Virus record (IMG/VR): IMGVR_UViG_3300025400_000015
Coordinates: 967-64,966 of that record
Strand: one strand, 5' to 3'
Source: a virus
Lineage: Duplodnaviria; Caudoviricetes
Length of the DNA: 64,000 bases
Shown here: positions 5,224-62,447 of the stretch, in pieces
Numbering within the stretch: position 1 is the stretch's first letter
Layout: every line of letters starts with the position of its first letter
Notes under the pieces: model-generated
The model's database searches: none
Told to the model about the DNA's origin: nothing
Seen by the model: only the letters and a program-made list of their open reading frames with translations
Made by a program: the position numbers and the translations under genes

Positions 5224-5703
5224 TTAGTACATCCCCGTGGTAGTGACCCCGACCTTTCGGCCTAGTTCACCAGAGCTGATCCGCATGATTTCCTCAACCG
5301 TAGTAGCGTTGGCCAAAGCGGCGAGGTACTCCTGCTGGGCGTCTGGCGTAGCGCCAACCGAACCAATAGTCGCACCTTGCGCACGGCGCAGGGCTTCGAG
5401 TTCAGGGTCATTCGACTGTTCGACAGGCTGGGGCTGGGAGTCCAAGATGCCGTACTCGCGGGCCTTGGCGCGGATCGCGTCTAGGTCTGCTTCGCCACGG
5501 TATGCGTCACGGAAAAGGTTTCCGAGAGGCGTATCTGGGATTCCTGCCTTGGCCAAAAGAACATCGCGTCTTGAGTTTTCAAGTTCGTGGCGCATGTGCT
5601 CCAGTTCCTTGCGGGCCTTCTCGGCCTCCCGCAACTGACGCCGAATGTTCGGGTCTAGCGGCTGGTTCGAAGTCTCTTCGTCAAGCTCGTCGTCGTATGC
5701 CAT
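5224..5703 (-). CDS. Capsid scaffolding protein
   Basis: Acidic N-terminus, coiled coil (IRRQLREAEKARKELE), immediately upstream of capsid; AAGGAG RBS. Confidence 0.75.
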   Translation of the reverse strand: MAYDDELDEETSNQPLDPNIRRQLREAEKARKELEHMRHELENSRRDVLLAKAGIPDTPLGNLFRDAYRGEADLDAIRAKAREYGILDSQPQPVEQSNDPELEALRRAQGATIGSVGATPDAQQEYLAALANATTVEEIMRISSGELGRKVGVTTTGMY

Positions 5704-13800: not shown

Positions 13801-16800
13801 TAAACTTTTGGCGCACCAAGTTTTTCATTACGTCTTCGCGTATTAAATTCCAATCTTCGCGCAATGGGTTTTTGCGGCCAAGCCTACGTGCAGCATTTGG
13901 GTGATTGGCGTTGCGAATTTGTTCGCGCAAGTCTTTGTCGGTTGTTTTGGCTGCTTGAAATGCGTGCTCTACCGTTGGGTATGTCTTGCCTTCAAACACA
14001 ACGGGCGACTCATGGAAGTTGGAAAGGAATCTAAATTCGCCCTTAAAACCGTTTTCTTCTAATTCAATTTGTTTTAGGGTAAGTTCGCGTTTATAATTTT
14101 CGGAAGCCTCGCGCAAACGCGTAGCTTGCTGTTTGGCTTCTTCAACAAAATCGTCATGCTTTTCGGCCGCAAAGGGATTGCCAATCTCGGGCTCCGAAGG
14201 ATAATGGTCAACTTCTCCATTGAAATTTTCTAAATCAAGAATTTGCTGTTTTAATTCTTCGGGGTAATCGGTAAAGTCGTACCGATCTTCAGCTTTGACG
14301 TTTGCGTAAATATGACGTTCTTTGATGTATGGCTTAGTTGCGTTTTCAACAACTCCGTCGCGCGAAACACGCGCATACTCCGCCAAACGAAGCTTTTGTT
14401 CCAAGCTCAAAAGCCGTGGTTCAATTTCTTTACCTGCCAGCGTGGTGTACAAAACGCCCGAGATGCGACGCATCTCTTTGGCCAAACCACGAAGTTCTGC
14501 GGCACGTGGAATGCGCAGTTCGCCAAGGTGGGTAGAACCAATACCAGCGAATCCTTCAAGGCCAGTCTTGGAGTTGCCCACGCGTGAAAGGACGCGGCCC
14601 TCCTTACCGGCTACATACAAGCCGCGATCGCCACCGCCGTCAAGGCCGGTCAGCTTCATAACTTCTTCCCAGATTTTGTTACCCATGGTGTGGGTCAAAA
14701 TGCCAAGTTCGCCCTTTTCAAGACCAGCAACGGCGCGACGCATCGTGGCGTAATACATTGCCTGGCGGTATGCATTGATGTATTCCTGCGGCCCTTCGGC
14801 GTGAAGCAACAAGTCGCCAACAGCCTTAACGGCGTCTTCGTGCATAAGGGATGAACGCAAAAGGTCCATGATTGCTGGAATGGCGTTAACACTGCCTGGG
14901 CGAATAATTTTGTTTTCGATCTTGCCGGTCAGCTCATCAATGTACGATGAGTCGCGGGTAAAACGCGTGGCCAGCCAACGAAAGAATGCAGCGGTGCCAC
15001 GAATGCTTTCGTCAGGCAAAGCAAACAACAAAGCGCTGTTGGGTTTAATGTCAACGCCTGTTTCTTCGCGAATGACTTTCCATACGGACTGAATAAAAGC
15101 ACCGTCGGAATTAAGCAGATTACCCAGAATGTGAAACCGGCGTCCAAGGTCGCCCTTTAGTTCTGCCTTGAAAATTTCGTACATGCTCATGCTGGGCATC
15201 ATGCCATTTACAATGCTGCTGCCTTCAGCTATGTCACGGAAAACCGCAAGGACCCCCTCTTCCGTGTTTGCTTCGCCCAGTCGCTTAATAAGCGTTCCAG
15301 CCTTAACGCTTTTGTCGGCAGAATCTTGAAACGTGTTGCGGAATGTATCCAAGATTTCCGATGCGCTGTGACTGGCAATGTAGTGAACTGCATTGCGCAC
15401 ACGTGCGTACTGCTGGTACGCAAGGTCAACGTCGTCCGCGTTGCGAATGCCAAGTCCGCTAAACCAAGCGCCCAGTGTGCCAGTAAAACCAGCAAACGAT
15501 CGTGAAGTGTGCAAGACTTTGCCGTACGCGCCCAATGGGTCGGTACCAAGCCATTTGGTGTAAAAATCGGTCAAACCGGACACCGGAGCGAAGAAAGGGT
15601 TGCCCTTGTCGATGCCAAAATACTGAGCCAACATTTGGCCATCAGTGCCAATTATTTTGCCATTTGCGTCATAGGCATTTCCGTCACGTGTCTTATTCCA
15701 AAGATCAATCAACGGCTGGTCATTGCTGTTAAGAACATTTTCTTGATTCACCAAATACATGGCGTTTAAACGAACGCTGGACGTGGCCTTGCCTGCCAAT
15801 CGAGCGGTTTTCATTAAATAACCCAAAGGGCGGAATGCTGCCTGCGAAGCAAGGTCCGCCAACTTGTATGCAGTGCCTCGGTCGGTGCCTGCAAACTTGC
15901 CCGATTGCAATTCGCGTTCGGCGCCAATCTTAAGGCGCTCTACAATTGCCTGTGTGCTGCGTTGTTCTGCGGCTTTAATGGCAGCTTGGGTTTCTTCGTC
16001 TAGCGTCTTTCCCGCAGCTTTTGCTGCATTGCCCATTGCAACCAATCGGCTGTCTTCCGCCATTTGTATTGACGCTTGAAGCGCTTCGGCATTTGCCGCA
16101 GCAACAGATGCGTCGGTTGACGCGCCATCGGTTGCAAGCCCCGCAAGGATGGATGGAAGCATGTAGGAAAGTGCATAATTCCAACCACGCTGAGCAGCCA
16201 ACGACTCGGTGAACGCCATTGTGTGCGACATCAATTGGTATGCGTTTTGCTGGCTCCACGGATCGATCAGGCGAGTTACGCTAAGCGCAACGTTGTTTGC
16301 GGTGTTGTAAGCATCGCCAAGGCCTACAAGTGGATTCCCTTGAAAACCGTTTGGCCCAAAAAAACCAATAGTGGCAATTTCGTCAGTGGTTAACATTCCT
16401 CGCAAAGCAATGTTTTTTCCCCAATCGGCAAGGCCCCCAAGGCCTTGGCCGACCCCACTTACTTTGTCCATAATGTTGTTGCCTATTGACCCCCAGAATC
16501 CATACTGGGCTTCACTGGCAGCAGTTTCCTGCACGCTGTCATTTAAAACGTTGTATCCGTCTTTAACAACGTTTGTTGCGGCGTCCCACAAACCTGACGG
16601 GGCACCCTGCAAAAAATTGCTTGCGCCTCTCCATGCATTTGACCACATGCCCGAAACGTCATTTGTGAAGTGGCCCCAACCACCATCGTTGTTTGCATAC
16701 CCGTGTACGTATCGACCGATCTGGTTATACGCAGTCAAGTACTTAACGGCATTTGAAATCTGGGTAGGGCTTGCATTGTCCATGCGAGCAAGGCTTGCAA

Positions 16801-16990
16801 TTGTTGAAGGGTTCTGGGCAATCAATGGATTGATTGAAGTAATACGGGCAAGGCCGTGTTGTTGCGTTGGGCTTAATGCATTCATGGCGTCGGAGTCAAT
16901 ATTCTCCTGCGCCAAAGCAATTGCCTTTTGGCCAATCGGGCTTGTCGTTGGCGTGCTTTGCTCTAATGGGATTCCATTGATTGAGGGCAT
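7889..16990 (-). CDS. Giant (3033 aa) internal virion/ejection protein, polyvalent: inserted NADAR, 2x DUF4326-like, GNAT-like and zincin-like domains
   Basis: Homologous to 50271..56456 (LRV.ASEA.LN, REP.FL..H..ME.LR, YVHNP, PF.FA.NQA.RR). Inserts carry FLSNF/TVEHAFQAAK/GQNKLG, YVGRGTPWGNPF...CNCSPLACHGDV and HELFH...DEFFAE motifs. Confidence 0.8.
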   Translation of the reverse strand: MPSINGIPLEQSTPTTSPIGQKAIALAQENIDSDAMNALSPTQQHGLARITSINPLIAQNPSTIASLARMDNASPTQISNAVKYLTAYNQIGRYVHGYANNDGGWGHFTNDVSGMWSNAWRGASNFLQGAPSGLWDAATNVVKDGYNVLNDSVQETAASEAQYGFWGSIGNNIMDKVSGVGQGLGGLADWGKNIALRGMLTTDEIATIGFFGPNGFQGNPLVGLGDAYNTANNVALSVTRLIDPWSQQNAYQLMSHTMAFTESLAAQRGWNYALSYMLPSILAGLATDGASTDASVAAANAEALQASIQMAEDSRLVAMGNAAKAAGKTLDEETQAAIKAAEQRSTQAIVERLKIGAERELQSGKFAGTDRGTAYKLADLASQAAFRPLGYLMKTARLAGKATSSVRLNAMYLVNQENVLNSNDQPLIDLWNKTRDGNAYDANGKIIGTDGQMLAQYFGIDKGNPFFAPVSGLTDFYTKWLGTDPLGAYGKVLHTSRSFAGFTGTLGAWFSGLGIRNADDVDLAYQQYARVRNAVHYIASHSASEILDTFRNTFQDSADKSVKAGTLIKRLGEANTEEGVLAVFRDIAEGSSIVNGMMPSMSMYEIFKAELKGDLGRRFHILGNLLNSDGAFIQSVWKVIREETGVDIKPNSALLFALPDESIRGTAAFFRWLATRFTRDSSYIDELTGKIENKIIRPGSVNAIPAIMDLLRSSLMHEDAVKAVGDLLLHAEGPQEYINAYRQAMYYATMRRAVAGLEKGELGILTHTMGNKIWEEVMKLTGLDGGGDRGLYVAGKEGRVLSRVGNSKTGLEGFAGIGSTHLGELRIPRAAELRGLAKEMRRISGVLYTTLAGKEIEPRLLSLEQKLRLAEYARVSRDGVVENATKPYIKERHIYANVKAEDRYDFTDYPEELKQQILDLENFNGEVDHYPSEPEIGNPFAAEKHDDFVEEAKQQATRLREASENYKRELTLKQIELEENGFKGEFRFLSNFHESPVVFEGKTYPTVEHAFQAAKTTDKDLREQIRNANHPNAARRLGRKNPLREDWNLIREDVMKNLVRQKFSEPGMRDLLLQTGDAKLVEVNTWHDNTWGDCSCGKCAGIPGQNKLGQLLTDIRSEFQKALTPEERAQYPSGDSPKTRGQKFKEAISVKGVFNKKDAPEDAIYVGRGTPWGNPFKIGPDGTREEVIEKFYEYAKKRLAEEPDWLDPLKGKNISCNCSPLACHGDVIKHLIDESIRNKQKSYGIGLGFKAGYVTKPGLAVPKDSVFVGEGSKWANPFKVGPDGSAKEVAEKFREYVKERLADDPTWLNKLQGKNAYVNDTPADVAHAYLLHEIVNEHFAAEFKKITQKTVVNGTSETLDQMVSALERFNAQRRFGDLPSNIVVARDEIGGMVGVLNYVAERDGSFTIHNLGAKNKEARAALLQALHAIAGEKDAPAITMSEGGARKLGEPENMIIDHNREDIEKWTTEPPLKKGKFIDGYEEAEAELSKILKTGLSPMYEFGASESMPEPSEVEHFVHAANVFEAKLRFLFQQKREIEDRIAAFNNTRIFSSRVITAHSGFDLNVSSPQFLMDELEKVRGKISATNQFINSMQSPLASPVYGLRELAGLAEDLKEARWNVGSLSEVLRKGYMPKGMKRDFIVTPPKIDSFIRARQDTSPEGERLIKDLVETHKDLVEKADLEKLRETFKSSSPEEMAAIEKFFAEKTDNYEKELLDFVNRIGPKFFAGVIAMVGSDHPDAFASYMFGQKILNIYSAALEAPLNFDFSVYHELFHHLSTYLPEEYVAQMENDFDRAREKFFQEHPLWDYMNKDTEDGVPLGWVHSHGEEMDYINHILDVNGTNPIDPKTIDFTRLSGYTMSAYGRNYWLHGVDEFFAESLAVRTMDLLSPIVSEAGKENLMINFGHSVIASVLSGMKNKLSSELLDNVFDNFMESRYLGNSEDLPLGIRSANIDRKNFQEILAEKPETNLQTELARLYSKRSPYIMGWQYTVDAINRFLSRTFVPMALFSGGWALRVGASEAMLNSLRFGGWQSFDAKVMASIAKHEAYGARLFREKADEVAARLAKQGLDPQKMSVEEFNSYVRDAYEGKLIRDVVAGVLTGMQKNLILGMDQAKRNRMLDDFVGTIMRHDGHLPGGVHSSKNDVFDEKTVEQTMSGILLEKNDNGEWVPSTKHGRNGVALSMPGAPNYESDLRMQIARIANDPLLAPVSKEMEEWLYNYGLQQAVVHGAITDPKDEFGFTREEIIRQGVKYIGPTEVDALRAAMEKKALETIEALPPEEVSRFQRDTGRIPPTSKFARSNAHEEWAAVIAENAIASVSGSGYFEDNNGTLQYVDHYFHPALVTQAANPDKLKGLEDFREDVRKMGNLAPEDIPSIGGHSGLVEGSMSDLITRVAEKGHDAVLGPIVNKMVREPIFLLEQHLQMERLRPLIERNLIDEPTAHMIADRDAFINMHKYVHNPQDKTLWEVNMRVLAPFYFAQNQAWRRAFRVLRNDPGAFERYLKLCLGVTNYISNASAGGNNPSIAVPGSTFLGNAGVIGGNVGSFTNGAFGHLGFGLSIDPGSIASVVPTGSESGAAGALGLFRPSWGPLVTMPLKIAEKMFSGATSSGVLATKVLAAILGPVSNNSSLYSDFFPSTIGRNLLDASVALANAAGITDLNTSAMRSTENLVLNNALDNLYSQQYDLAWKHYQKALEQTNPNTGQPWTPNEKIAFLRAQADLYVSDYFNNPQNFQTFLDHARGAAVMMMLVKGVLAFASPAALSIQEQFSKSPEFQALSARMPFTEAANKFAVEYPNNIFDLVAHSSSNYTPYPETVSSAAILSTVQGQQLAAKYPYAFAYTISRNGKYSPVAYTLEVSLNLRAKDTPQQYLDAILVAAGNDYYYNYLAAQPAFGGNGMAPGTNIGYQEYKALNDQALNYGRSMNPTWLSNFQGASRYNAEINSINEMRSLVKDPLVTENIMTKTDRKKFAFVLENYDSVVSKVQAIISGNGSATGLENQWYNWCQEVAADPQFKTQAYFIQHALASLPNKYGN

Positions 16991-17426: not shown

Positions 17427-19337
17427 CTACACTCCTGCTGGGGTTGGTGCTGGTGCCATGGCGACAGCGGGTGCCATGCCTCCCTGTGGGGGCATTCCTC
17501 CCTGCGGTGGCATACCGCCACCACCGCCACCAAGCTGTCCAAGCAAATCCTGAAGGCTGGGCTTGCCCTGTGGCTGTGCGCCCTGGATTGGGTTTTCTGG
17601 GCCAACAGCCAAACCAGGCTGCTGCTGAGGCATGGGTGCCTGCTGCTGTTGCATTGCCTGCGCTTGCGCTTGCTGCTCTTCCTGCATTTCTTTGTGAATT
17701 TGGGCCACAGCTTCTTCCAACGTAGTGTGGCGCTGGTTCTTGGCCTGAGCAATGCGGGCAATGATGCTGGGGTCTAGCGACCCTTGGGCGGCTTGCTGTT
17801 CAAGGCCCGTAAGAAGCGCTTTACGCAAACCTTCAATTTCAACCAAGTCCGCTTCACGCGCCGGGTCTTTGATCGCCGGGTCCATGGTTCGTGCGGTTTC
17901 ATTGGACATAATGCCCATGCCAACACGCTGTCCAATAGCAACCACCATAGAATCGATGTCGCTTCCCGGCATTGGGTAGACAACTTTTGAAACGTCCGTT
18001 TCGAAAGTTTCTTTAGGCGTGTAATCAGGTCGTGCAATTTTTCCGTCCGTTCCAAAGAAAAACATGCTTGGCTTGTTGCCATAGTACGCCTTCATAATCT
18101 TTACTGCGCGACTGTTTTCCAACTCCATTGAGTTGGCCAGGATTTCCTGGTACTCCTGAAGCGGCATGTCGATCGCGGAACCAAGAACGGTAGCACCACG
18201 GCGAGCGGTGCGGATGTTAGAACCAGATTCACCGTTGAGCTCTGACGGAATGTTACCCGTCATACGCTGAGCGCGCTCAAGGTTGCTTATGGCAATTTGG
18301 GCGTCCTGGGTCTGCTGGGGGTGGATAATTTGGATCTGTCCCTTGTCAATAACTCCTCGAATACCCATCTTGCCATCGGCTTCTTGGATAATTCGGGGAC
18401 TTGTGGGTGCGTTGGCAGGGGAAACCACCCATTCGTCGGGAAAGACATTTCGGAAAACGGCGATGGTGTTAAGTGCGTCAAGCTTTGCCTCTCGCTGGTA
18501 CATGCCGAGCATTTGGTCAAACTGACCCTGCAAACGGTCGAGGGTAATGCGACCGGCGATTACAACAGGGCAAACCTCTGCGCGGTTGGGAATTCGTTCA
18601 AGAATAATGTGCGAAGCGGCGCCCTTGCCAACCTCTTGCGAAAACGGCGTGGCCTTAGGTTTTTCGGCGCCAACAGCAACCATGACGGTTTCGTTGGCAT
18701 CCATGTATTCCAAGATCTGGAACAGGTCGGACTTGCCCCTGTCGCCACGGTACAGCACCGACATTTGCTGGGGGTAGTTATCCTGCAGCCAACCAAGGGG
18801 TCGACGGTCGGCAAAGATGCAGTCAGTTGGCTCCATGTTGTCGGGGTCGACCATGGGCGAAGGGTAGGTGGCCAGCGGGTTCCGAACTCGCCAGAATGGG
18901 ATCTGTCGGCGGTCGCTGGGGTCGAGGGCTACGGGCGATAACGAAATGGCTGACATGCCATAAGCCGTCAAGTGGCGGGCGCGACGGCGCACCTTGGTGG
19001 TCATCTTGTTCATGTCCCACCAGCCAAGGTTTGCCAGTCGGCGGTCATGCGCCTTGTTTTCTGAAAGCTGAATGCCGTTACGAAGGGCTGGGTACTGAAT
19101 GTCCGGCATGACTGACGCCACGCGCATAGAGAACTGGTCAATGCCCTGGGCAATAAGGTTAGGGATGGCGGGGCGCTCAGCTTCGTCCAGCTCGGGCAAA
19201 GGCACAATGACATCGCCGTTGTAGTGGTCGCGGACCTCGGCCATGCGCTTAAAGATGCCCGAACGGCTCATCTGCCGTTCCTGGAACATAGAAACGATTT
19301 GGCTTGCAGCCTTTTCGTTGTCAAGGGCCAATGCCAT
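17427..19337 (-). CDS. Portal protein
   Basis: 636 aa directly after terminase, helical with low-complexity Q/P/G tail typical of podoviral portals; near-identical homologue at 56880..58769. Confidence 0.8.
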   Translation of the reverse strand: MALALDNEKAASQIVSMFQERQMSRSGIFKRMAEVRDHYNGDVIVPLPELDEAERPAIPNLIAQGIDQFSMRVASVMPDIQYPALRNGIQLSENKAHDRRLANLGWWDMNKMTTKVRRRARHLTAYGMSAISLSPVALDPSDRRQIPFWRVRNPLATYPSPMVDPDNMEPTDCIFADRRPLGWLQDNYPQQMSVLYRGDRGKSDLFQILEYMDANETVMVAVGAEKPKATPFSQEVGKGAASHIILERIPNRAEVCPVVIAGRITLDRLQGQFDQMLGMYQREAKLDALNTIAVFRNVFPDEWVVSPANAPTSPRIIQEADGKMGIRGVIDKGQIQIIHPQQTQDAQIAISNLERAQRMTGNIPSELNGESGSNIRTARRGATVLGSAIDMPLQEYQEILANSMELENSRAVKIMKAYYGNKPSMFFFGTDGKIARPDYTPKETFETDVSKVVYPMPGSDIDSMVVAIGQRVGMGIMSNETARTMDPAIKDPAREADLVEIEGLRKALLTGLEQQAAQGSLDPSIIARIAQAKNQRHTTLEEAVAQIHKEMQEEQQAQAQAMQQQQAPMPQQQPGLAVGPENPIQGAQPQGKPSLQDLLGQLGGGGGGMPPQGGMPPQGGMAPAVAMAPAPTPAGV

Positions 19338-19340
19338 GTA

Positions 19341-21254
19341 TTACCTCAAGTTCGCTAGTTGGGTGTTGCGTACCCACTTGGGGCGCCATGCCTGGACCGC
19401 AATGGATCGTGGCTGGTGCAAGTTTGGAATGTTCCATTCAAAGAACCATTCCGCCATTACGCAGTCGTCTGTACGCCCGTGAGGGTACTTGGTTACCTCG
19501 TCGATAAGATGCATCGACCGGGTTTTGCCTTCACCCTTACCCATCAATCTTACACGACCAAATCGCCAATGTTGGGAAATCGTCGTAACACCGTAATTTG
19601 GGTCACTCTTGTTACTGGTGGTATTGTGAGGAATTACTTCGACGCCGCTGAGTTGCCGCCATCTTTTAAAATGGTCGTACTGAAGCATGAATCGCTGGGC
19701 GGCATTTTGTTCAATAATCCACCACTGTATCGGGAAACCGATACTGGTCGATAAACGCTGCCATTCTTCCATGACCCCAGTGAATTCACCGAGATTGTAG
19801 TTGTATTCCAAAAACTCCGGGGCTTCCATCTTCTTACGAATAAGGTCAAGCAAAAACCGTTGTTGGCTTTCAGGATGGTATAGCCAGCATTGAATCGACC
19901 AATAATTAGTTGGCGACGGGTCTGCCGTGGCGATAACCATGCAATCGGCTGGATTAAGCCCCGGGGGTATCTCCCAACGGTCTCTATCTTTGTCAATGCA
20001 CCCCACGCTCCCTCCGTGTCCGTAGACCCATTCATTCCGAACCAGCGTCTCATCTAGCGCAATGTCTTCTTGCTGGTAGACGACCGCAAAGCGTTCACCA
20101 CGGTTTGACATAAGATTCGATATTTCGCGCCATGGGAGTCGACGGGGGTCCAAAAGGCAACCCGTAGGATACGCTTCAGATCCTCTTTTGTGGAAAGCGG
20201 GGTCGCATCGATCTTCGTAATGGGCACGGTACAGCAGGTGCTTGTACTTCTTGTCGTGTCGGAGATTGGCGATTTCATCATCGGTAAGTTCGTCAAGTAT
20301 TTCATCTTCCTCCAAGGGCTGGGTCATGTCCAGCGCAAAGCGATATAGGTCATCAGGAGCAAGCCGCTGGCCAATAAGGGCAAGCATGCCAGCAGGTTCC
20401 AGACGAGTCTCGGCCACGTCTTGGTACCAGTCTTCCATGGCTTCTCGCTGTTCAGCACTTCGTACTTTACGAGGGTCCACAAGGTCGTCCCAAAAACAAC
20501 CATCAAAGCGGCCACCAATAAAACCTGAGTCCATACCGTAAGCACTGAGCGTTGGTTCCTTTTCTGAGATAGCGCCGTTTTCTTCGGGCTGCATAACAAT
20601 AAATGCTTCATTGGTCCAAAGCTCTTTTTCCAAAGGCTTAAACCGGCCAAAGTCAAGGGCTAGGGTTGATTCGGCGTCGACCGCTTGTCCACGGGCTTTA
20701 AGGTTGTCATCGGCCAATTCAGGAATGACGCGCTCTAGGGAACGGCGAACGCGCATTAGGTTTCGCTTAGCCAGGCTCATTGTGGCCGATCCGGTCAGCA
20801 AACGCACTGCTCGGTTTCGGCAAATGATCCAGCACGTCAAATCGTGGAGCAAGGTCGTTTTACCAGAACCCGGGGGCATGTTCATGACCACGTATTCTTT
20901 TTGCTCAGACTCTAAGAGTTTGACCAGTTCAGTACCGGCTTCTTCCTGCCACGGCGTAGCGATGCGCCCAAAGTACCGGCGCCGAAAATACCCAAAATCC
21001 TCTAAGGCCAGCTTGGCTTCTTCGCACAAACTGTCGTATGGCTTGGGCCCTTCAAGCTTGGCTTCTACCTTAAGCTCTCGGTAGTTGGACGCTGACGTGT
21101 CCATTTGATCTGCCGCTTTTAGCGTTTGGGCGGCTTTCTCTACGCGGTAGGCCGTAGCTTCCGAAAACTTTGCTTTGCGGGCGCTGTCGGCAATGGAGAA
21201 ACCAGCCGTGCGCGCTTCAAAGTATTTTTTGCGTTGGGCGGGAGTAACAGCCAT
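19341..21254 (-). CDS. terL: Terminase large subunit with N-terminal HTH-like extension
   Basis: Walker A MPPGSGKTT, Walker B FWDDLVD, YQQE, nuclease ATADP, IEQNAAQ and HGRTDDCVMA motifs. Confidence 0.92.
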   Translation of the reverse strand: MAVTPAQRKKYFEARTAGFSIADSARKAKFSEATAYRVEKAAQTLKAADQMDTSASNYRELKVEAKLEGPKPYDSLCEEAKLALEDFGYFRRRYFGRIATPWQEEAGTELVKLLESEQKEYVVMNMPPGSGKTTLLHDLTCWIICRNRAVRLLTGSATMSLAKRNLMRVRRSLERVIPELADDNLKARGQAVDAESTLALDFGRFKPLEKELWTNEAFIVMQPEENGAISEKEPTLSAYGMDSGFIGGRFDGCFWDDLVDPRKVRSAEQREAMEDWYQDVAETRLEPAGMLALIGQRLAPDDLYRFALDMTQPLEEDEILDELTDDEIANLRHDKKYKHLLYRAHYEDRCDPAFHKRGSEAYPTGCLLDPRRLPWREISNLMSNRGERFAVVYQQEDIALDETLVRNEWVYGHGGSVGCIDKDRDRWEIPPGLNPADCMVIATADPSPTNYWSIQCWLYHPESQQRFLLDLIRKKMEAPEFLEYNYNLGEFTGVMEEWQRLSTSIGFPIQWWIIEQNAAQRFMLQYDHFKRWRQLSGVEVIPHNTTSNKSDPNYGVTTISQHWRFGRVRLMGKGEGKTRSMHLIDEVTKYPHGRTDDCVMAEWFFEWNIPNLHQPRSIAVQAWRPKWVRNTQLANLR

Positions 21255-21848: not shown

Positions 21849-22130
21849 GCGGAAGGGTTTTGTGTGGTTGTCCTGAGGATGGACGTTCCCAGTGTATCAC
21901 GGGTGGGACCGTATGTGTGTCAGGGGTTAAAAAATTTTTGAAGCACCGGGGTGCGAACTTGCAAAAAGGCCCCGTCCGGAGACGGGGGCCAATTTGCATC
22001 TATGAGCAAGACGGATCGCAATGTAGGTACAAACATTATAGCAGATGGAGTGCAGAGAGGGGGGTCTGGGCGGATCCAAATCTTTGGGTAGGTTACGCCG
22101 CAAACGACTGGCCGCGGCCGCCGAATGGTG

Positions 22131-22136
22131 TACACT
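22131..22136 (+). promoter_or_regulatory. -10 element (TACACT) for candidate ncRNA
   Basis: TGGTG-TACACT about 7 nt before the conserved block; TGGTG-TATCAT at the same place in copy B (61823-61828). Confidence 0.55.
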
Positions 22137-22142
22137 GGATGT

Positions 22143-22392
22143 ATCGCCATTGGCAGCGGTCGTGGGTGGAAGCCCCCGCGGAGTGTGAGTCTGGAAACAG
22201 ATACTCGCCGCAGTTACCCGGTTAGAGCGGGATTCGGTTGGCGCACCCTGAATGCAATTTGGTTGCTTTGGGGAAGAGTTGAGGAGTTGCATTGCTCCAC
22301 AAACAGTCCTTGCGCCGTGCGGAACAGGTATTGCAGACTCTTCGGAGTTGAGGGAAATGCGGGCAGAGTTGTAAGCAAACGATACTAGCCCC
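22143..22392 (+). ncRNA. Candidate structured ncRNA (~250 nt, probable pseudoknot), copy A
   Basis: Conserved with 61835-62080; several compensatory stem changes; GAAA and UUCG tetraloops; upstream -10. Confidence 0.75.
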
Positions 22393-22729
22393 CATAATCC
22401 CGAGGTAGAAAACCTTCCGCCGCGGATGACACCCACTGATAGTACTTTTGATAGATACGACGCATAGCCGCGGCCGCGACCGCGGCGCCTGGCCTGGTGA
22501 CGAGAATGACAGTTTTCGGTAGAGGGGATAACAACTCTTGGTAGCACGACGGGCTCGGCACACACCCGGTCAAGTCGCTGGTAAACACAGAGTTTTTTTC
22601 CACACCAGAATATGTGTGCCTCGCATTTTACGGAACCGACCCGGTTCCATATCCTCCCGGGCAAACTTGGAAGGGATACCTTCCAAAGTTTGCAGTTCCG
22701 CTTGCAACCAGCCAGAATGAGAAACAAAT

Positions 22730-23500
22730 TGGAGGGGAAGGCGTTGGATTAGCAAGACGGCTAAAGCCGACTAATCCGGGATCCTCCCGCTAGTAAGACG
22801 CCGACGGGGGCGTCGTCATCTTACTGCACGGGCCCCTCCCGGTTCATGAGTGTCGCCCTAAATTTGCAGCCTGCATTTACAACGCACGTTTGCGGGGGCG
22901 TAAACCCAACGATCCGTAAGTTCGGGGAAACCCCTCTCTAACGGACTCGGTAGGTTTCACACCCTTTGAGCAAACGCACGTTGTTGCAGGCTCAAATTTA
23001 CCAAATCTCGCGATTTGGACGGGCGCCACCGTCCGGCTGGGAATCGCGGCGAGCGGCCCGGCCCCAAGGGGCCTATGGTTTGGTCAGTCCCAAAAGCGGA
23101 CTGACCGCACCTATGCCGCTACGGCTTGTCCGAGGGGGGGAGTGAACCCCCCCCGTCGGCCTACGCCTGTCGCCTCCGGCCAAACTCACACACAGTTGGT
23201 TCCATGGTACGGGATAAATTTCGCGTGTCAATCCGTAAACGGACGGGAGCCTGCATTGCGCCCCTGCGGGGCACAATTCTTAGCAGGCTTCTCAGAAACT
23301 TTTCACAATTACGGCCCCCCGCAAGCGGGGCCCCCCGGAATTCTGAAAACTTCCTGCGACGCGTTCCGCGCCCTGTTGACACACGAAATTCACCCCCTTC
23401 GCCGCCCGCGCCAACGACGCACTGCGTCGTTGTCACGTTCGCCTCGGCCATTTGCTAAGCCCCACACGTTCGCTAGCGAACGTGAGTGGCAAAGCAAACG
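22730..23500. other. Hairpin-dense non-coding region (large ncRNA, origin or terminus region)
   Basis: More than ten consecutive inverted repeats, e.g. 22860-23000 and 23247-23291; no credible ORF. Confidence 0.5.
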
Positions 23501-23549: not shown

Positions 23550-23966
23550 ATGAGTATGGGAAAGTTTATAACGATTCTGGTTTGTGGGAGTCGCACGTTC
23601 AAGGACGAAGCCTTCATGCGGAACAAGTTGAGCAATGTAATTGCCGACCTCGGCGTTGAAGCAACCGACGTGAAGTTGATCACGGGTGGCGCTGCAGGTG
23701 CCGACACGATCGCTGAAAAAATCGGCCGTGGGTGGAAGTGGGAAGTGAGCGTGTTCAAAGCCGACTGGACAGCCGAACCCAAGCGTGCTGGGTACATCAG
23801 AAACCAGCGCATGCTTGACGAAGGCAAGCCGAACCTCGTGCTCGCATTTTTCGGGCCCGCTGAAGACGACTCCCGAGGCACTTCCATGATGGTTGACATC
23901 GCCCGCAAGGCTGGAGTGCCCGGCTGGTCGTACCGTCCGCACATCACGCCTGACCCGATTCCCTAG
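23550..23966 (+). CDS. YspA-related SLOG family protein (DUF2493-like)
   Basis: ILVCGSR, ITGGAAGAD, ADW...AGYIRNQRM, VLAF...SRGT..MV..ARKAG motifs. Confidence 0.85.
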   Translation: MSMGKFITILVCGSRTFKDEAFMRNKLSNVIADLGVEATDVKLITGGAAGADTIAEKIGRGWKWEVSVFKADWTAEPKRAGYIRNQRMLDEGKPNLVLAFFGPAEDDSRGTSMMVDIARKAGVPGWSYRPHITPDPIP

Positions 23967-24037
23967 TTCGCAGTACGGTATGGGTTCCACCGCTAAAGGG
24001 CCCAACCAACCAACTAAGTATCGAGAAAGGATACACC

Positions 24038-24292
24038 ATGCAGTTTGAATTTCAGGCAACCCTTCAGACGGTTGCAAAGCAGTTGTTCGACGCCACCTAC
24101 GGGGTAGGCGTTCCGTCCAGTGAGCGCGATGGCGCGTTCAAGGCGCTTGGCGAGTTTGAGGCCCTTGCGGAAGCAGGGCACCCAGACGCCGTCTACGTTC
24201 TTGCGTGGTACGACCGCCTCATCACCGATTGGGAAGCCGAGGTCGAACGTTACGAACTCGAACTCGCTGACGCAAGTTGGGAGGTGATGTGA
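24038..24292 (+). CDS. Acidic hypothetical early protein
   Basis: GAAAGGA RBS; coupled to next ORF. Confidence 0.65.
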   Translation: MQFEFQATLQTVAKQLFDATYGVGVPSSERDGAFKALGEFEALAEAGHPDAVYVLAWYDRLITDWEAEVERYELELADASWEVM

Positions 24293-24468
24293 TGTGGGTT
24301 GACCTGCAAGCAACGCTGGTGATTGCAGCGCCGATGTTGTTCGTGCTTCTCGCCTTCTTGGTCGAGGAGTGGTTCACTGACTTCACCAGCCCACAGGCAA
24401 AGCGCCGCCGCCGCCGCAACCGCCGTATCCGCGCCCGCCGCAAAGCAGCACGCAGAAGCGGTTGGTGA
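24292..24468 (+). CDS. Small membrane protein with poly-Arg tail
   Basis: One TM segment followed by KRRRRRNRRIRARRK; TGATG overlap. Confidence 0.5.
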   Translation: MWVDLQATLVIAAPMLFVLLAFLVEEWFTDFTSPQAKRRRRRNRRIRARRKAARRSGW

Positions 24469-24621
24469 AGTCATGAAGTCGAAGAGAAAGAAAGGAGGTG
24501 AGACCATGAGCAAGACGGAATTTGCAAGAGAGGTCGCTCGCGCAGCCGAGGCCGACGAGGAACCAAGGAAATAGGGGGTAACGCCCCTAAACGGTTCAGC
24601 AATAAAAAATCCGAAGGTCGT

Positions 24622-24660
24622 ACCCTACCGAGAGGCTTTTTCAAGCCTCTCGGTAGGGTT
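24622..24660 (+). terminator. Strong hairpin, terminator-like
   Basis: ACCCTACCGAGAGGCTT-TTTC-AAGCCTCTCGGTAGGGT perfect inverted repeat. Confidence 0.55.
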
Positions 24661-24756
24661 CAGCGAAGGGTGTCTTGTATAGTGCAAGATTATCCTTTGC
24701 AATCAAAATCTGAAGGGAAAGTCCCGGAAGAAAACAAGTTACCGAGAAAGGGTAAT

Positions 24757-25971
24757 ATGCCTGAAGGCTACGAGCGTGAACTCGTAAACTCACAAGCGCC
24801 CAGTGACGTCATCACTGAATTCGCCACCATCGACGGAGAAACCATGGAGTTCGATTCGGACACCATGACCCGTTGCGAGCGAACCACCTGCGACAACGCG
24901 TGGCTCAACGATTCATATGACTATATGAATGTCTTTACGTTGGGCGGCGAACAGCAGTGGTGCGAAGACTGCGCCAACCTGCGATCATGGGTTTGTGACT
25001 CATGCTCCAACTGGTACGACTCGTACTACGAAAGTTCCACCTGCGTTGACGACGAATCCAGCGTCTGCACTGAATGTGACGAAAACACGTGGTACTGCGA
25101 CAGTTGCGAAACCAACCACTGGGATGGCCACACTTGCGAGCGCGTAGAACAAGAGTTGATGTCCTACACCTTCAAGCCACGTCCAATTCACAAGTTCGCC
25201 AGCAATGAGGTCTGGAATGGAGCCCAAGGGTACCCCACTCCCACCTACGGCATCGAACTTGAGTCGGAAAACGTAACAAACCAGTTGCACGAAGCAATCG
25301 CCGCGTTCCGCAAGCACTACACGATGGACGACTTCTACCTCAAGTCGGACGGCTCGCTGTCCTACGGCATGGAGATTGTCAGCCACCCTCGGTCGCTTGC
25401 GTCGTGGCGGGAAATTGCTCCCGAACTGGCCGTAGCGCTCAAGGAATTGAGCAATCTCGGTCAGCGCGCTTGGTCGCAAACTCGTGCTGGTTTGCACATC
25501 CACGTTGGACGTAAGAACTTCACCACCAGCCACGCGGCTCGTTTCGTGATGTTGTTTGCGCGCAACGCAGAAGACTGGATCCGTCTCGCCAACCGCAAGA
25601 CCTCGTACGCGTTGTTCAGCGGAATCGAAGGGGCTGCCGTCATGAAGGTCAAAAACCCAACGTGGGCTGCTCACTCCGACGCCGTCAACACTGGCGCCAA
25701 CGGTGGAACAACGATCGAAATTCGTATCTTCCGTCCATCGCTGTCAGTCGGCCGCGTAATCGGTTCAATTGAGTTGGTCGATGCAGCAATTGCGTACACG
25801 CGCAACATGACCGCATACGATGCCATCCGCGGGGCTCTGGCCTACGACGAGTTCAAGAAGTACGTCATGTCGTGCGACAACTGGCCAATGGCCAAGAACA
25901 TCATGCGTGGCTTGCGCTTCAACATGGAAATTCTCCCGCCCGACAATCGTGGAGACCGCTCATGTGCGTGA
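24757..25971 (+). CDS. Putative amidoligase (COOH-NH2 ligase type 2) with N-terminal CxxC zinc-finger repeats
   Basis: YGIELE, KSDGSL..GMEIVSHP, AGLHIHVGR, TIEIRIFR; start at ATG 24757 after GAAAGG. Confidence 0.85.
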   Translation: MPEGYERELVNSQAPSDVITEFATIDGETMEFDSDTMTRCERTTCDNAWLNDSYDYMNVFTLGGEQQWCEDCANLRSWVCDSCSNWYDSYYESSTCVDDESSVCTECDENTWYCDSCETNHWDGHTCERVEQELMSYTFKPRPIHKFASNEVWNGAQGYPTPTYGIELESENVTNQLHEAIAAFRKHYTMDDFYLKSDGSLSYGMEIVSHPRSLASWREIAPELAVALKELSNLGQRAWSQTRAGLHIHVGRKNFTTSHAARFVMLFARNAEDWIRLANRKTSYALFSGIEGAAVMKVKNPTWAAHSDAVNTGANGGTTIEIRIFRPSLSVGRVIGSIELVDAAIAYTRNMTAYDAIRGALAYDEFKKYVMSCDNWPMAKNIMRGLRFNMEILPPDNRGDRSCA

Positions 25972-26867
25972 TGTGCGTAGGAACGACCGCCAATGAACGG
26001 CCGACACGCGCTAACCTCGTCGTTAGTTGCATCAACAACCCAGACGGCTTCGGCTGGGGAATCGTGTACGACGCACAAGTCGAAGGAACACCAACCCGTC
26101 GACTCATGGCAAACCACTCGATGACGTCCGAAAGCGCCATCGATTCGTACTTCGCGGCACTCGACCAGTTGGGCGAAGCAGTTGTGGGACACCTGTTCCA
26201 CGCTCGCATCGCCACACGCGGTGGGGTTCACCTGAAAGGCTGTCACCCATTCTGGGTACCAGAAGGTGAGCGTGAGTACGACACCAGTGCGTTGCTTGCA
26301 CACAACGGAATGCTTGGCTTGAGCATCCCCAAGAACGACCAGCGGGTTGACTCGCAGGTCTTTGCGGAGGATGTGCTGCCAATGTTCGGTGGCGTCGAAT
26401 CGCTGAACAAGCCGTACATGTGGGACATCATCAACGGTTACGTTGAGGGAGAACGCTCCAAGGTGGTAATTCTCAACACCATCTTCGAAGAGTCACCTGT
26501 CATCATCTTGGGCGAAAGCCTCGGATCGTGGGACAAGAACACCGGGCTCTGGTGGTCTAACACCTCATGGTGCAGCACTCCTTCGTATCGCACGCCAGCA
26601 AACGTGACCTACGGATCGCGAATGCCAGCACGCGAGAGCACTTGGTCAGACTACGACATGTTTGAGTCAAAGTCAACCATGACCGAAGACGAGTACGAAG
26701 AGTTGTTTGGCGGAATGGCATGCCTTGACACAACCTGCCCCGGCTGGGTTCTCCCAGAAGACGGACACTTGTGCTTGGAGTGCGGCGTCTGCCAAATGTG
26801 CCTCGACACGTGGGATGAGTGTATTTGCGAAGACATTCGCGAATCACTGCCCACGGAAAAGCAATAA
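25962..26867 (+). CDS. Class II (Ntn) glutamine amidotransferase
   Basis: Start Met-Cys at 25962 after GGAG; NPDGFG, HARIAT.G...CHPF, AHNG, DS motifs. Confidence 0.85.
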   Translation: MCVMCVGTTANERPTRANLVVSCINNPDGFGWGIVYDAQVEGTPTRRLMANHSMTSESAIDSYFAALDQLGEAVVGHLFHARIATRGGVHLKGCHPFWVPEGEREYDTSALLAHNGMLGLSIPKNDQRVDSQVFAEDVLPMFGGVESLNKPYMWDIINGYVEGERSKVVILNTIFEESPVIILGESLGSWDKNTGLWWSNTSWCSTPSYRTPANVTYGSRMPARESTWSDYDMFESKSTMTEDEYEELFGGMACLDTTCPGWVLPEDGHLCLECGVCQMCLDTWDECICEDIRESLPTEKQ

Positions 26868-28430: not shown

Positions 28431-28817
28431 TTATTGAGTATGCCCGTTTCGCTTCTTGCGATAACGGGCTACTCTTATTTTTGAGGCATGGTTGTATGCC
28501 TCAATGCAGGGCTCGCAGATGACGTGGTCAGGGTCCTTAAGTTTGAGGCGACGATGCTGTGCGTGTCCTCGCTCGGTGCCGTGCTCGATTTCCTTGCGAT
28601 TAGGAGGCTCGTAGCCCAGCGATGCTGCCACGATGCGGAGTTCCTGATACGACAAACCGCCCCACACTCCCCATGCTTCCCGATGTTCTAAGGCCCAATA
28701 CAGGCAGTCGGTCTTTATGGGGCAGGTAGCGCAGATAGCACTAGCCTGTTGTGTGAGGCGGTCGTTGAAGAAGAGATCCGTCTGCCCTACGCAGAGGGCT
28801 TTGGACCAATCGGTCAT
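28431..28817 (-). CDS. whiB: WhiB-family Fe-S transcription factor with C-terminal HGT..H..CxxC domain
   Basis: W...ALC, CATCPIKTDC, WGVWGG. Confidence 0.88.
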   Translation of the reverse strand: MTDWSKALCVGQTDLFFNDRLTQQASAICATCPIKTDCLYWALEHREAWGVWGGLSYQELRIVAASLGYEPPNRKEIEHGTERGHAQHRRLKLKDPDHVICEPCIEAYNHASKIRVARYRKKRNGHTQ

Positions 28818-28820
28818 GGA

Positions 28821-29183
28821 CTAGAAATCTTCCTCGGGGGTCGACCACTTCTTGGGTGCGCCCTTAGCGTCCTCGCTGGCGTAGCGAAGATCGGCTCCTG
28901 CGCCTTCGACGGTCAAGATGACCTTCGAGACGGTCTTGCCTTCCTTGTTCTCGTAGCGGTCTTGGTTCAGGTTGCCAGTGATGATAACACGCTGGCCCTT
29001 GCGCAAGTTGTCCGAGATGCCTTGGGCAAGAGTGCCCCAAGCGGTGCAGTCGAAGTAAGAGACGCTCTCTTCTTCGCCCTTCTTCCGGTTCACTGCGATG
29101 CTGAAATTAGCGAGGGCAGTTCCCTTGTTTGTGAACTTCAGGTCCACGTCTGCGACCATACGGCCAATAAGCGTTGTGCTCAT
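28821..29183 (-). CDS. ssb: Single-stranded DNA-binding protein
   Basis: LIGRM..D..L.FT..G.A.ANFSIAVN, YFDCTAWG.LA, KGQRVIITG.L, acidic EEDF tail. Confidence 0.92.
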   Translation of the reverse strand: MSTTLIGRMVADVDLKFTNKGTALANFSIAVNRKKGEEESVSYFDCTAWGTLAQGISDNLRKGQRVIITGNLNQDRYENKEGKTVSKVILTVEGAGADLRYASEDAKGAPKKWSTPEEDF

Positions 29184-29231: not shown

Positions 29232-29573
29232 TTAGAAGCCTGCTTGCTTAAGCAACCAAGCCATTTCTTCCAGCGTTACGACTGCGTAGCCCAGTCGAGC
29301 TGGCTTGTTCCGCCGTTTGATAACAGCGATACCAAGGTCCGCCTTCGCATTGGCTCGCTCTCGGGACGCTTCGTCCATGATGCTCGCCAACGTGATGGTC
29401 TTTACATTCTTGCACTCAATCACGACCCGAGGGATACCGTTAAGGTCGCCCTTGTCCATCGTGTTGCCTGCGCCGTAGCGTCGCTCGGCATAGGGGAACC
29501 CCATGTCGTTAAACACCTTGGCAACGTCACGTTCCCACTGGGAACCCTTTGCCTTTTCAGGCGTCGTCATCAC
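29232..29573 (-). CDS. Holliday-junction resolvase (PD-(D/E)xK)
   Basis: KAKGSQWER, DKGDL, IECKN. Confidence 0.8.
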   Translation of the reverse strand: MMTTPEKAKGSQWERDVAKVFNDMGFPYAERRYGAGNTMDKGDLNGIPRVVIECKNVKTITLASIMDEASRERANAKADLGIAVIKRRNKPARLGYAVVTLEEMAWLLKQAGF

Positions 29574-29712
29574 TCGTCTTTTCGATCAGCACGGCAATCG
29601 CTTCCTGAATCTTCGTCTGCTCGACGCCGACCTGCACTAAAGCAGCCAGAAAGTTGACCATCATGTTGTCAACAGACTCTTCAATTTTCTTAATAATTTC
29701 TTCATTTGTCAT
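29557..29712 (-). CDS. Small acidic hypothetical protein (51 aa, below ORF-track cutoff)
   Basis: Hand translation MTNEEIIKEIEESVDN...; fills gap with overlapping start/stop. Confidence 0.5.
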   Translation of the reverse strand: MTNEEIIKKIEESVDNMMVNFLAALVQVGVEQTKIQEAIAVLIEKTSDDDA

Positions 29713-30230
29713 CGAACTAAGCCTAGCACACGCTTGATGCTCTCCGGCATTGGCACCGCCTCTTCACGCTCTCGACGCTTCTTTTCAAAGAACTCGCTGT
29801 CGACGGCAGGAATTCGTGGGGCGGTGTCCTGCACAACAATGACTTCTCCGTCACGTTGGCGCTGCGCAAGCATCGTGTGGTAGTGCTTGCGGAACTTGAT
29901 CGGTGAAAAAATAACCGTGCCCCAGAAAGCATGACCAACGCACCACGTCAACATTTCTTCGACGTTGGGCACCGGCACCTTGTCAATGCGCAACAACTTT
30001 TCCATTGCGGAAACGTTCGTGTCGTTCATAACAAAAGGGCGGTGGGAGTTGGCAACAATGCCTTCGTTGAGGCGCTCACAAAGCGTTCGAGCCTGCGCCC
30101 ATGTCTCTGTATGCTTGGTTCGTGCCACAGTTCGGGCGTTGACGAATTTCTTCATTTCCTCCACCTCTTCCACGGTGACACGCCCCTCCTGAATTAACAA
30201 ACACAAAACTTCCTTGTACGCGTCAGTCAT
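29709..30230 (-). CDS. Putative replication initiator/helicase-loader-like protein
   Basis: LLRIDK....VEEMLTWC....FWG.VIFSP.KFRKHY resembles the C-terminal domain of phage replisome organisers. Confidence 0.5.
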   Translation of the reverse strand: MTDAYKEVLCLLIQEGRVTVEEVEEMKKFVNARTVARTKHTETWAQARTLCERLNEGIVANSHRPFVMNDTNVSAMEKLLRIDKVPVPNVEEMLTWCVGHAFWGTVIFSPIKFRKHYHTMLAQRQRDGEVIVVQDTAPRIPAVDSEFFEKKRREREEAVPMPESIKRVLGLVR

Positions 30231-61790: not shown

Positions 61791-61834
61791 CCAAAAGGTG
61801 TTGCACCTCGGCGCCGATGGTGTATCATAGGTAT

Positions 61835-62080
61835 ATCGCCATTGGCAGCGGTCGTGGGTGGGAGTCCCCGCGGAGTGTGAGTCTGGAAGCAGATACTCGC
61901 CGTAGTTACCCGGTTAGAGCGGGATTCGGTTGGCGCACCCTGAATACAGTTTCATTCGGGGAAACGTCGAGGCTATGCATTTGGCCACAGACTGTCCTTG
62001 CGCCGCGCGGTTCTGGTATTGCGGACTTTTAGGAGTTGAGGGAAATGCGGGAATAATTGTTTCTAAACGCTTTTAGCCCT
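61835..62080 (+). ncRNA. Candidate structured ncRNA, copy B
   Basis: Conserved and covarying with 22143-22392; upstream TTGCAC-N16-TATCAT. Confidence 0.75.
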
Positions 62081-62447
62081 TGCTTAGAATGTGCGATGAG
62101 GACAGACGGTTAGCAAGGACTATGAGCTGGTGCGATGACTCCCAGCCAAGAAGCCCGGTGAAAGTATGTTTGATAGAAAAATCTAAGGTGATTTTGACAC
62201 CACCATTTGTCCCGAACCTGGCGGTTCGTGACGTGATGAGAACTACAAATAAATAAGTTCTGATCTAAAACAAAGTGTGGCGAAAACCCTTGTGTTGTAT
62301 GGGTTTTGGCGAGAATGACAGTTCTCCGTTTCTGGGATACACACGCGCATAACGACACCCGCCTCGGCATACACCTAGTCAGACAACCCTTGTGACGTGG
62401 TGATGAGAGAAAGTAAAGGTGTGTAGGGTAAGCGATGCGTTGGCTAT

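Follow-up and report, generated by a model that had tools for sequence, protein, structure and literature searches.

An uncultured phage genome carries on its plus strand, divergent from the operon of the large terminase gene (terL), a gene for a non-coding RNA that has tertiary structure and belongs to a family not classified before. The gene was found in a stretch of 64,000 nucleotides (nt), referred to here as the window, which is a portion (positions 967 to 64,966) of the 64,966-bp IMG/VR virus record IMGVR_UViG_3300025400_000015. The window spans about 1.6 genome lengths and contains two diverged copies, A and B, of one phage of about 39.4 kb, each with its own version of the RNA. Covariation supports all the main helices of this RNA of about 225 nt and 12 helices. 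On balance, and by no wide measure of confidence, we favour the view that it is an independent, trans-acting early RNA that probably binds protein.

A conserved block in two diverged genomes

A preliminary description of the window had drawn attention to an intergenic block common to both phage copies and had proposed that it encodes a stand-alone RNA with a pseudoknot. The block is found at 22131-22392 in copy A and at 61823-62080 in copy B. Its edges are sharp and the surrounding DNA cannot be aligned. It consists of a promoter followed by a structured non-coding RNA of about 224 nt on the plus strand:

22143-22366, plus strand: structured RNA of copy A; the 5' end is predicted from promoter geometry and the 3' end is the limit of conservation
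61835-62054, plus strand: structured RNA of copy B; helix P7b is 61971-61975 with 61982-61986, its loop 61976-61981, and the tail partner of the loop 62044-62049

The full 224-nt RNA is 85.3% identical between the copies, compared with 47.3% for the upstream and 43.9% for the downstream flank (225-250 nt each). Within the RNA the 5' 97 nt reach 95.9%. Nucleotide identity between the copies is 83.2% for terL and 81.2% for the portal gene; the 5' domain of the RNA is conserved more strongly than terL (95.9% versus 83.2%).

The differences between the copies preserve pairing, as the preliminary description had it. The hairpin GGAGU-UGCAUU-GCUCC (22283-22298) of copy A reads GGCUA-UGCAUU-UGGCC in copy B (61971-61986), GUU/AAC is replaced by GUC/GAC, and UGCGG/UUGCA by CGCGG/UUGCG. 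The CCCUGAA...GGGG hairpin of variable length, the closing helix GGCGCA/UGCGCC and the hairpins with GAAR and UUCG loops are likewise all present. The observation of a conserved, folded RNA block is confirmed.

Secondary structure and covariation

Helices were placed by hand from compensatory changes and then tested; RNAalifold applied to mixed MAFFT alignments gave poor consensus folds in which the variable inserts were misaligned. The helices of copy A, with the percentage of standard pairs and the number of pairs that change on both sides among relatives, are:

22143-22160, plus strand: P1 hairpin (22143-22147 with 22156-22160); 99.5% paired, 4 of 5 pairs changed on both sides
22164-22176, plus strand: P2 hairpin (22164-22166 with 22174-22176) with the 7-nt loop UGRAAGY; 100% paired
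22178-22211, plus strand: P3 arm, made of P3a (22178-22181 with 22208-22211; 99.4% paired), P3b (22187-22190 with 22203-22206; 92.7%) and P3c (22191-22193 with 22198-22200; 75.0%)
22217-22231, plus strand: P4 hairpin (22217-22220 with 22228-22231) with the invariant loop GUUAGAG; 100% paired, 3 of 4 pairs changed on both sides
22240-22316, plus strand: P5 (22240-22245 with 22311-22316), which closes the multi-helix junction of the 3' domain; 100% paired in both subfamilies described below, with 3 of 6 pairs changed on both sides in the window's own and 4 of 7 in the second
22246-22273, plus strand: P6 hairpin of variable length; 87.0% paired
22278-22304, plus strand: P7, made of P7a (22278-22280 with 22302-22304) and P7b (22283-22287 with 22294-22298) around the loop UGCAUU (22288-22293)
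22318-22335, plus strand: P8 hairpin (22318-22322 with 22331-22335); 94.5% paired in the window's subfamily, 80.0% in the second
22336-22349, plus strand: P9 hairpin with a UUCG loop, variable in relatives; 76.5% paired, no pair changed on both sides
22356-22361, plus strand: 3' tail AAUGCG, which pairs with the loop at 22288-22293 and lies within the conserved tail GAGGGAAAUGCGGG

The 5' domain (P1, P2, P3a-c and P4) was examined in 43 distinct relatives. In an alignment that was fitted to the model, a bias in favour of its pairing, 97.3% of 911 pair cells hold standard pairs and 18 of 23 pairs change on both sides, and none of 500 shuffles reaches any of the five measures used. When partners were slid by 1-3 columns as a control, pairing fell to 32-52%. 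The middle pair of P2 illustrates the pattern, being CG in 22 sequences and GC in 21.

For the 3' domain, plain MAFFT alignments were made within subfamilies. Among 11 sequences of the subfamily to which the window belongs, 89.9% of 367 cells are paired and 15 of 35 pairs change on both sides; the corresponding values for 15 sequences of a second subfamily are 86.3% of 329 cells and 12 of 22 pairs. P7a is fully paired in the window's subfamily (91.7% in the second) and P7b is 95.9% paired, with 4 of 5 pairs changed on both sides. In the window's subfamily the loop UGCAUU is carried by eleven different P7 stems. The outer pair of P8 is CG, UA or UG in the window's subfamily and GC, GU or AU in the second. 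P9 is the weakest helix of the RNA. A mutual-information scan that was blind to structure placed helix pairs in 9 of the top 11 column pairs.

The analysis shows a highly constrained 5' domain of four helices with invariant 7-nt loops, and a more plastic 3' domain built on the junction closed by P5. Inserts of very different length occur at three peripheral sites, the tips of P3 (up to about 50 nt in relatives), P6 and P9. Several unpaired elements are invariant, namely the loops GUUAGAG and UGRAAGY, the internal loop AGUGU and the tail. The RNA is assigned to the plus strand because G-U pairs are frequent in its helices and because the folding energy is -81.5 kcal/mol on the plus strand versus -59.2 on the minus strand.

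The loop-tail pseudoknot

The P7 loop UGCAUU (22288-22293; 61976-61981 in copy B) is complementary to AAUGCG downstream (22356-22361; 62044-62049), and the preliminary description had taken the two to form a pseudoknot. In the window's subfamily the pairing joins the loop (U)GCAUU(U) to the conserved tail (A)AAUGC(G), and members form 5-7 Watson-Crick pairs in their own loop-tail helices. Two relatives, cited here by locus number, rewrite both sides of the helix: L017 has CCGACUU with AAGUCGG (7 Watson-Crick pairs) and L078 has CUCGGCG with CGCCGGG (6 pairs). Combined with the standard tail, the loops of L017 and L078 form 3 pairs each, and the standard loop of copy B forms 4 pairs with the L017 tail and 3 with the L078 tail, versus 6 with its own. 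Since the register of the helix shifts in L017 and L078, a column-wise count of the pseudoknot is weak for the window's subfamily, with 78.0% paired and 2 of 6 pairs changed on both sides.

Other relatives differ. A 4-pair form, CACC/GGUG, is possible in L013 and L100, and some members of the second subfamily pair the tail with an internal P7 strand instead (CGCAUC/GAUGCG; CGUAC/GUACG). In one subfamily (for example L054, L048, L058 and L081), P5 is followed by an insert of about 110 nt that has several hairpins and contains AAGGUAC. This sequence is complementary to the P7 loop GUACCUU of the same subfamily, and the two may form a relocated pseudoknot. Another subfamily (L027 type), with an RNA of only 195 nt, lacks P7 entirely and could not form the pseudoknot.

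A register-free test, in which 36 nt were searched against 12 nt, suits the pseudoknot better than the column-wise count but had low power; it was applied to 21 representatives. Seven gave shuffle p values of at most 0.065, and eight more had 5-6 Watson-Crick pairs at p values of 0.09-0.25. Six had 2-4 pairs at p values of at least 0.55: L073 and L013 (both of the window's subfamily), L043, L062, L124 and L025. The loop-tail pairing of L026 and L106, which are near-identical to L025, behaves alike.

The claim of a UGCAUU/AAUGCG pseudoknot is upheld by compensatory rewriting in the window's subfamily, and it does not extend to several subfamilies that lack the complementarity or to the one that lacks the whole hairpin. 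Judged from these sequences, the pseudoknot appears to be real in the lineage of the window and not universal across the RNA family. Candidate universal partners for the tail GCGGG(G), such as CCUYGY beside P5 or the junction of P2 and P3, are invariant.

Distribution and synteny

Sequence patterns taken from the block matched 8, 21 and 48 IMG/VR contigs and 85 metagenome stretches. Parsing of 213 loci yielded 165 RNA copies, which represent 61 distinct versions of 195-325 nt. A search with the TerL protein returned 112 relatives, the best 80 of which were kept. A covariance model was built on the 5' half of the RNA only, the 3' half being handled with MAFFT alignments and scripts, and this model matched 58 places in 88 sources.

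The RNA is present in 49 of the 80 TerL loci, always upstream of terL and on the opposite strand, at 910-3693 nt (median 1177) from RNA start to terL start. The synteny with terL that the preliminary description had proposed checking is borne out. Among the 31 TerL loci where the RNA was not matched, upstream DNA is shorter than 2500 nt in 25. The remaining 6 reach at least 2500 nt and are more distant (60-76% TerL identity), and they gave no convincing match even with filters off; the same setting revealed one further weak member, at locus L064 (17.5 bits).

A degenerate 20-base pattern of the RNA, the one that retrieved the 48 IMG/VR contigs and 85 metagenome stretches, had no match in 185,579 prokaryotic species genomes, and blastn of the block against 50,697 phage records matched none. 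From these searches, the RNA appears to be confined to one lineage of uncultured freshwater phages of about 40 kb.

Promoters and downstream signals

The transcription signals on either side of the RNA are:

22131-22136, plus strand: -10 box TACACT of copy A, with TG just 5' of it; promoter of the RNA
61823-61828, plus strand: -10 box TATCAT of copy B
22438-22451, plus strand: conserved box GATAGTACTTTTGA (family form GAYAG..TTTT), found 28-134 nt after the tail in 31 of 42 downstream regions
22506-22534, plus strand: second promoter-like box of copy A, ATGACA, 17 nt, TAACAA (family form GAGAATGACAGTT..GGGATAMAC)
62315-62343, plus strand: second promoter-like box of copy B, ATGACA, 17 nt, TACACA

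A -10 box ahead of the RNA had been recognised in both copies, and the relatives confirm it: TANNNT occurs in 42 of 42 distinct upstream regions and ends 3-4 nt before model position 1. TG is found within 4 nt upstream of the box in 41 of these regions, and a -35 hexamer (at least 4 of 6 matches to TTGACA at a spacing of 16-18 nt) in 19. This geometry predicts a transcription start at the base of P1, near 22143 in copy A and 61835 in copy B. About 35-40 nt upstream of the -10 box, most relatives conserve GTTACG (22091-22096 and 61793-61798, plus strand). GTTACG is the reverse complement of CGTAAC, a candidate -35 element, and the RNA promoter would accordingly stand back to back with a candidate late promoter.

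Downstream of the RNA, L013 and L100 are the only loci in which the GAYAG..TTTT box folds into a proper hairpin with a U run; the box may mark a 3' end or be a site for a protein. It has TGAYAG in common with the second promoter-like box. The core of the latter, AWGAYAS, is present in 39 of 41 distinct downstream regions, and its flanks show the long form. Further copies of this second box occur in some loci (L027, L031). It is conserved far beyond what a promoter requires and, by analogy with the stoperators of phage L5, may combine a promoter with an operator. The DNA beyond it is hypervariable: open reading frames (ORFs) of copy A over the first 3 kb were matched in only 2-3 of 38 loci, and the ORFs next after the RNA begin at least 150 nt away.

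These data bear on whether the RNA is a cis-acting 5' leader of the early operon, serving in antitermination like the put and EAR RNAs or as a riboswitch-like sensor. The RNA stands directly behind an early promoter with its predicted start at the base of P1, no terminator follows it, and it is conserved whatever the downstream cargo, as a generic expression module would be. Alternative folds are also conceivable, with the tail GCGGG(G) paired to C-rich strands elsewhere in the RNA. However, the conserved second promoter box separates the RNA from the early genes in 39 of 41 regions, and these genes need not use the first promoter. Neither a plus-strand terminator (predictions extended to 23060) nor a ribosome-site expression platform adjoins the conserved part, the nearest ORFs belong to no conserved gene class, and an RNA of about 225 nt and 12 helices is much larger than the known antitermination RNAs. 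We regard a leader function as a serious alternative, though a rather unlikely one. As to the proposal that the RNA is stand-alone, the conserved second promoter downstream speaks for it and the lack of a terminator after the RNA against it.

Coding potential and known RNA families

The locus is non-coding, because no reading frame is kept open across relatives and because length varies out of frame. A stop-free frame spans the RNA in only 8 of 44 distinct versions, the other 36 having stops in all six frames, and RNA lengths fall into all three classes modulo 3 (22, 16 and 6 versions). Copy A does contain an 87-amino-acid (aa) ATG frame at 22125-22388 and a 266-aa frame on the opposite strand, and the region lies between divergent promoters; these features would suit a small protein gene or a site that acts as DNA (an origin, a packaging site or an operator array). 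Such a reading is scarcely credible in view of the closed frames, the strand-specific compensatory changes and G-U pairs, and the promoter held at a fixed distance in 42 of 42 relatives. An RNA-primed replication origin was considered separately and found less likely, given that the phage encodes an initiator (DnaD-like or O-like) together with SSB, Erf and RusA. The description of the locus as a structured, non-coding, plus-strand phage RNA with its own promoter, divergent from the terL operon, is supported.

A scan of the 64,000-nt window with the 4227 models of Rfam 15 at gathering thresholds, which include riboswitches, ribozymes, RNase P, 6S, tmRNA, GOLLD and ROOL, gave no match. Across 21900-22800, at E values up to 10, three sub-threshold matches appeared at chance level (17.5, 17.3 and 16 bits against gathering thresholds of 35, 48 and 39). 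ARAGORN predicted no tRNA or tmRNA gene in the window. The earlier statement that the RNA falls outside Rfam, tRNA and tmRNA agrees with these scans. In nine related loci (104,623 nt) the sole Rfam match at gathering thresholds was a tRNA elsewhere in L060, a more distant relative; this match, at 5433-5488 on the plus strand, is borderline (29.8 bits against a threshold of 29) and covers model positions 10-63.

The preliminary description had suggested a packaging-motor RNA like the packaging RNA (pRNA) of phi29 as one possible role, with intermolecular loop-tail pairing that would assemble a ring on the portal. The RNA is a phage RNA beside packaging genes, it has an early-type promoter, and its covarying loop-tail pairing could in principle be intermolecular. 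Rfam, which contains a pRNA family model, gave no match to it on the block even at E values up to 10. Classical large terminases package DNA without an RNA, and the phage encodes one of full length: TerL has 637 aa, and residues 31-620 align with PHROG 38 (terminase large subunit), which is not the small RNA-dependent packaging ATPase without a nuclease domain. Moreover, the loop-tail pairing is absent from several subfamilies, and the whole hairpin from one, though their terminases are 73-85% identical to that of the window. Packaging is the weakest of the roles proposed, because of the full-length classical terminase, and we consider it very improbable.

A self-cleaving or catalytic RNA of a new class, which would process the early transcript or another substrate, fits the many invariant unpaired nucleotides (GUUAGAG, UGRAAGY, AGUGU and the tail) and the multi-helix junction with its pseudoknot; with no terminator present, cleavage might also generate the 3' end. 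On the other hand, no known ribozyme family was matched, no cleavage site is marked in the sequence data, and protein binding or tertiary contacts would explain the invariant loops equally well. We consider catalysis unlikely.

Full-text literature searches found no description of the RNA. The family is new in that no known family matches it and no described function was found; as a kind, phage non-coding RNAs without an assigned role have precedents. A 2023 survey of IMG/VR intergenic regions reported 8,495 "DNAVirus_X" candidate structured RNA motifs of 29-151 nt (PMC10690425). Like our RNA, these motifs come from IMG/VR and are supported by covariation; they are given no function, and they do not exceed 151 nt while the RNA has about 225 nt. 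A fragment of the RNA may be listed, unnamed, among them.

The phage and its host

The main features of the phage outside the RNA locus are:

19341-21254 (copy A) and 58773-60686 (copy B), minus strand: large terminase, terL
17427-19337 (copy A) and 56880-58769 (copy B): portal
28431-28817, minus strand: WhiB-like regulator (PHROG 12112, E 4.7e-20)
28821-29183, 29232-29573 and 29709-30230: SSB, RusA and DnaD/O-like initiator, after the WhiB-like gene
7889-16990, minus strand: 3033-aa protein after the portal, with NADAR (residues 986-1119) and DUF4326 domains
50271-56456: counterpart of that protein in copy B, 2061 aa, with no Pfam match
23550-23966, plus strand: YspA/SLOG-family protein, part of the early cargo of copy A (23550-26867)
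24670-25971 and 25872-26867, plus strand: amidoligase-like and class-II glutamine amidotransferase-like proteins of the same cargo, both at borderline scores

Further genes encode the major capsid protein, Erf and a Cas4-like exonuclease. The 3033-aa protein and its counterpart look like an injected multi-domain protein with variable enzymatic cargo, to judge from their sequences. The two diverged genome copies are arranged head to tail in the record. A separate contig of 40,240 bp (loci L004, L012 and L148) encodes a TerL that shares 99% identity with the copy A protein, and for this reason the tandem may be an assembly join of two co-occurring strains and not a real concatemer.

The host is probably an actinobacterium, given the WhiB-like gene and the fact that the distant TerL relatives among isolated phages are mainly Streptomyces phages; among the 15 tblastn matches listed, all of them to Streptomyces phages, TerL is about 29% identical over 29% of the protein.

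Proposed role of the RNA

The RNA lies at the very start of the early region, the usual site in phages for functions of host takeover and anti-defence. Few large RNAs are known that combine many covarying helices with invariant loops and a pseudoknot, and those solved so far proved to be ribozymes, riboswitches or cores of protein-RNA machines.

The sequence of events that we propose begins with host RNA polymerase, which would start at the extended -10 promoter a few bases before P1, so that the rightward early region, which backs onto the packaging operon, would yield the RNA first. Covariation shows the 5' domain folded as its four helices and the 3' domain as a junction closed by P5, locked in the window's subfamily by the pseudoknot between the P7 loop and the 3' tail. 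We infer that the RNA forms a transcription unit of its own, since the early genes that follow it are not conserved and possess a separate, conserved promoter; we do not take it for the leader of particular genes. Because its loops and junctions are more strongly constrained than any neighbouring gene, it would act as RNA, and its most probable mode of action is to bind a protein, of the host or of the phage, early in infection. The best working parallel, by analogy, would be the early RNA made from Pleft in phages L5, D29 and StarStuff (Dedrick et al. 2017, PMC5712189).

Several points weigh against an independent, trans-acting early RNA. The 5' end, 3' end, abundance and expression of the RNA are all predictions from sequence, and its protein partner or target is postulated only. 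The 21 sequencing runs listed for this DNA are all DNA metagenomes, with no RNA run among them. With no intrinsic plus-strand terminator predicted after the RNA up to 23060, a longer early transcript may simply begin with it. The energy of single-sequence folding is ordinary (z = -0.53), and on one of the five measures of covariation, further pair types, 156 of 500 shuffles reached the value of the 3' domain in the window's subfamily. The pseudoknot is missing from several subfamilies and hence is not central to any family-wide function. The analogy with the L5 RNA is positional only, and the host assignment is based on one gene family and distant TerL matches.

A more far-reaching reading, which we consider less likely than not, is that the RNA is the founding member of a new functional class: complex RNAs made first in infection that act on the host as RNA. 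If so, it might take over or block host RNA polymerase, a nuclease or a defence sensor; alternatively it might be a new ribozyme or a multimer held by loop-tail pairing. Freshwater actinophages would then carry an essential RNA effector that is better conserved than their terminase gene. Apart from that reading, the RNA is the best-conserved element of a whole lineage of abundant, uncultured lake phages. Taken with the host-toxic early RNA of mycobacteriophages, it suggests that actinophages may commonly open infection by RNA and not by protein. Because the family is compact and clearly delimited and offers many natural compensatory mutants, its structure and partners are directly testable in vitro.

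Comparison with known phage RNAs

The pRNA of phi29 resembles the RNA described here in being a structured phage RNA with an early promoter, a covarying loop pairing and a location near packaging genes. The two differ in that the present RNA has no Rfam match, accompanies a classical TerL, lacks a family-wide loop pairing and is unrelated in size and fold. GOLLD and ROOL, large phage-associated Rfam families, are similar as complex, covariation-rich RNAs of phages or prophages to which no function has been assigned. Unlike them, our RNA has no Rfam match, is much smaller, is not beside tRNA genes (the window has none) and occurs in one phage lineage.

The put RNA of HK022 and the EAR RNA of Bacillus are processive antitermination RNAs that make RNA polymerase resistant to termination. 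Like them, the RNA is structured, stands just behind a promoter and lacks a terminator of its own; unlike them, it is several times larger and more complex, it has a second conserved promoter downstream, and no terminators are predicted nearby.

Homology to the early RNA of L5 was rejected: there is no sequence or structural homology, and the blastn search of phage records was empty. The 5'-domain model, run over 50300-52297 of L5, gave a best score of 6.1 bits (E 0.21), which fell on the promoter and operator repeats. The Pleft RNA of L5, D29 and StarStuff is reported to be an abundant, stable non-coding transcript of about 500 nt directly downstream of Pleft, the promoter for early lytic expression, to lack a canonical terminator and to give rise by processing to shorter RNAs that share their 5' end. 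The transcript is toxic to the host, and one part of it resisted deletion (PMC5712189). It is longer than our RNA, and the passages of that paper concerning the transcript give it no covariation-supported fold. Its expression, stability and toxicity have been demonstrated (PMC5712189), whereas the RNA of the window is predicted from sequence. As far as that account goes, the likenesses are nonetheless several. Both RNAs are non-coding and come from actinophages (in our case a probable one), lie directly behind an early promoter and ahead of variable early genes, and lack a canonical terminator. Both have a 5' end fixed by the promoter (predicted here), and neither has an assigned role (PMC5712189). 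In both, operator-like repeats that overlap -35 hexamers lie close by.

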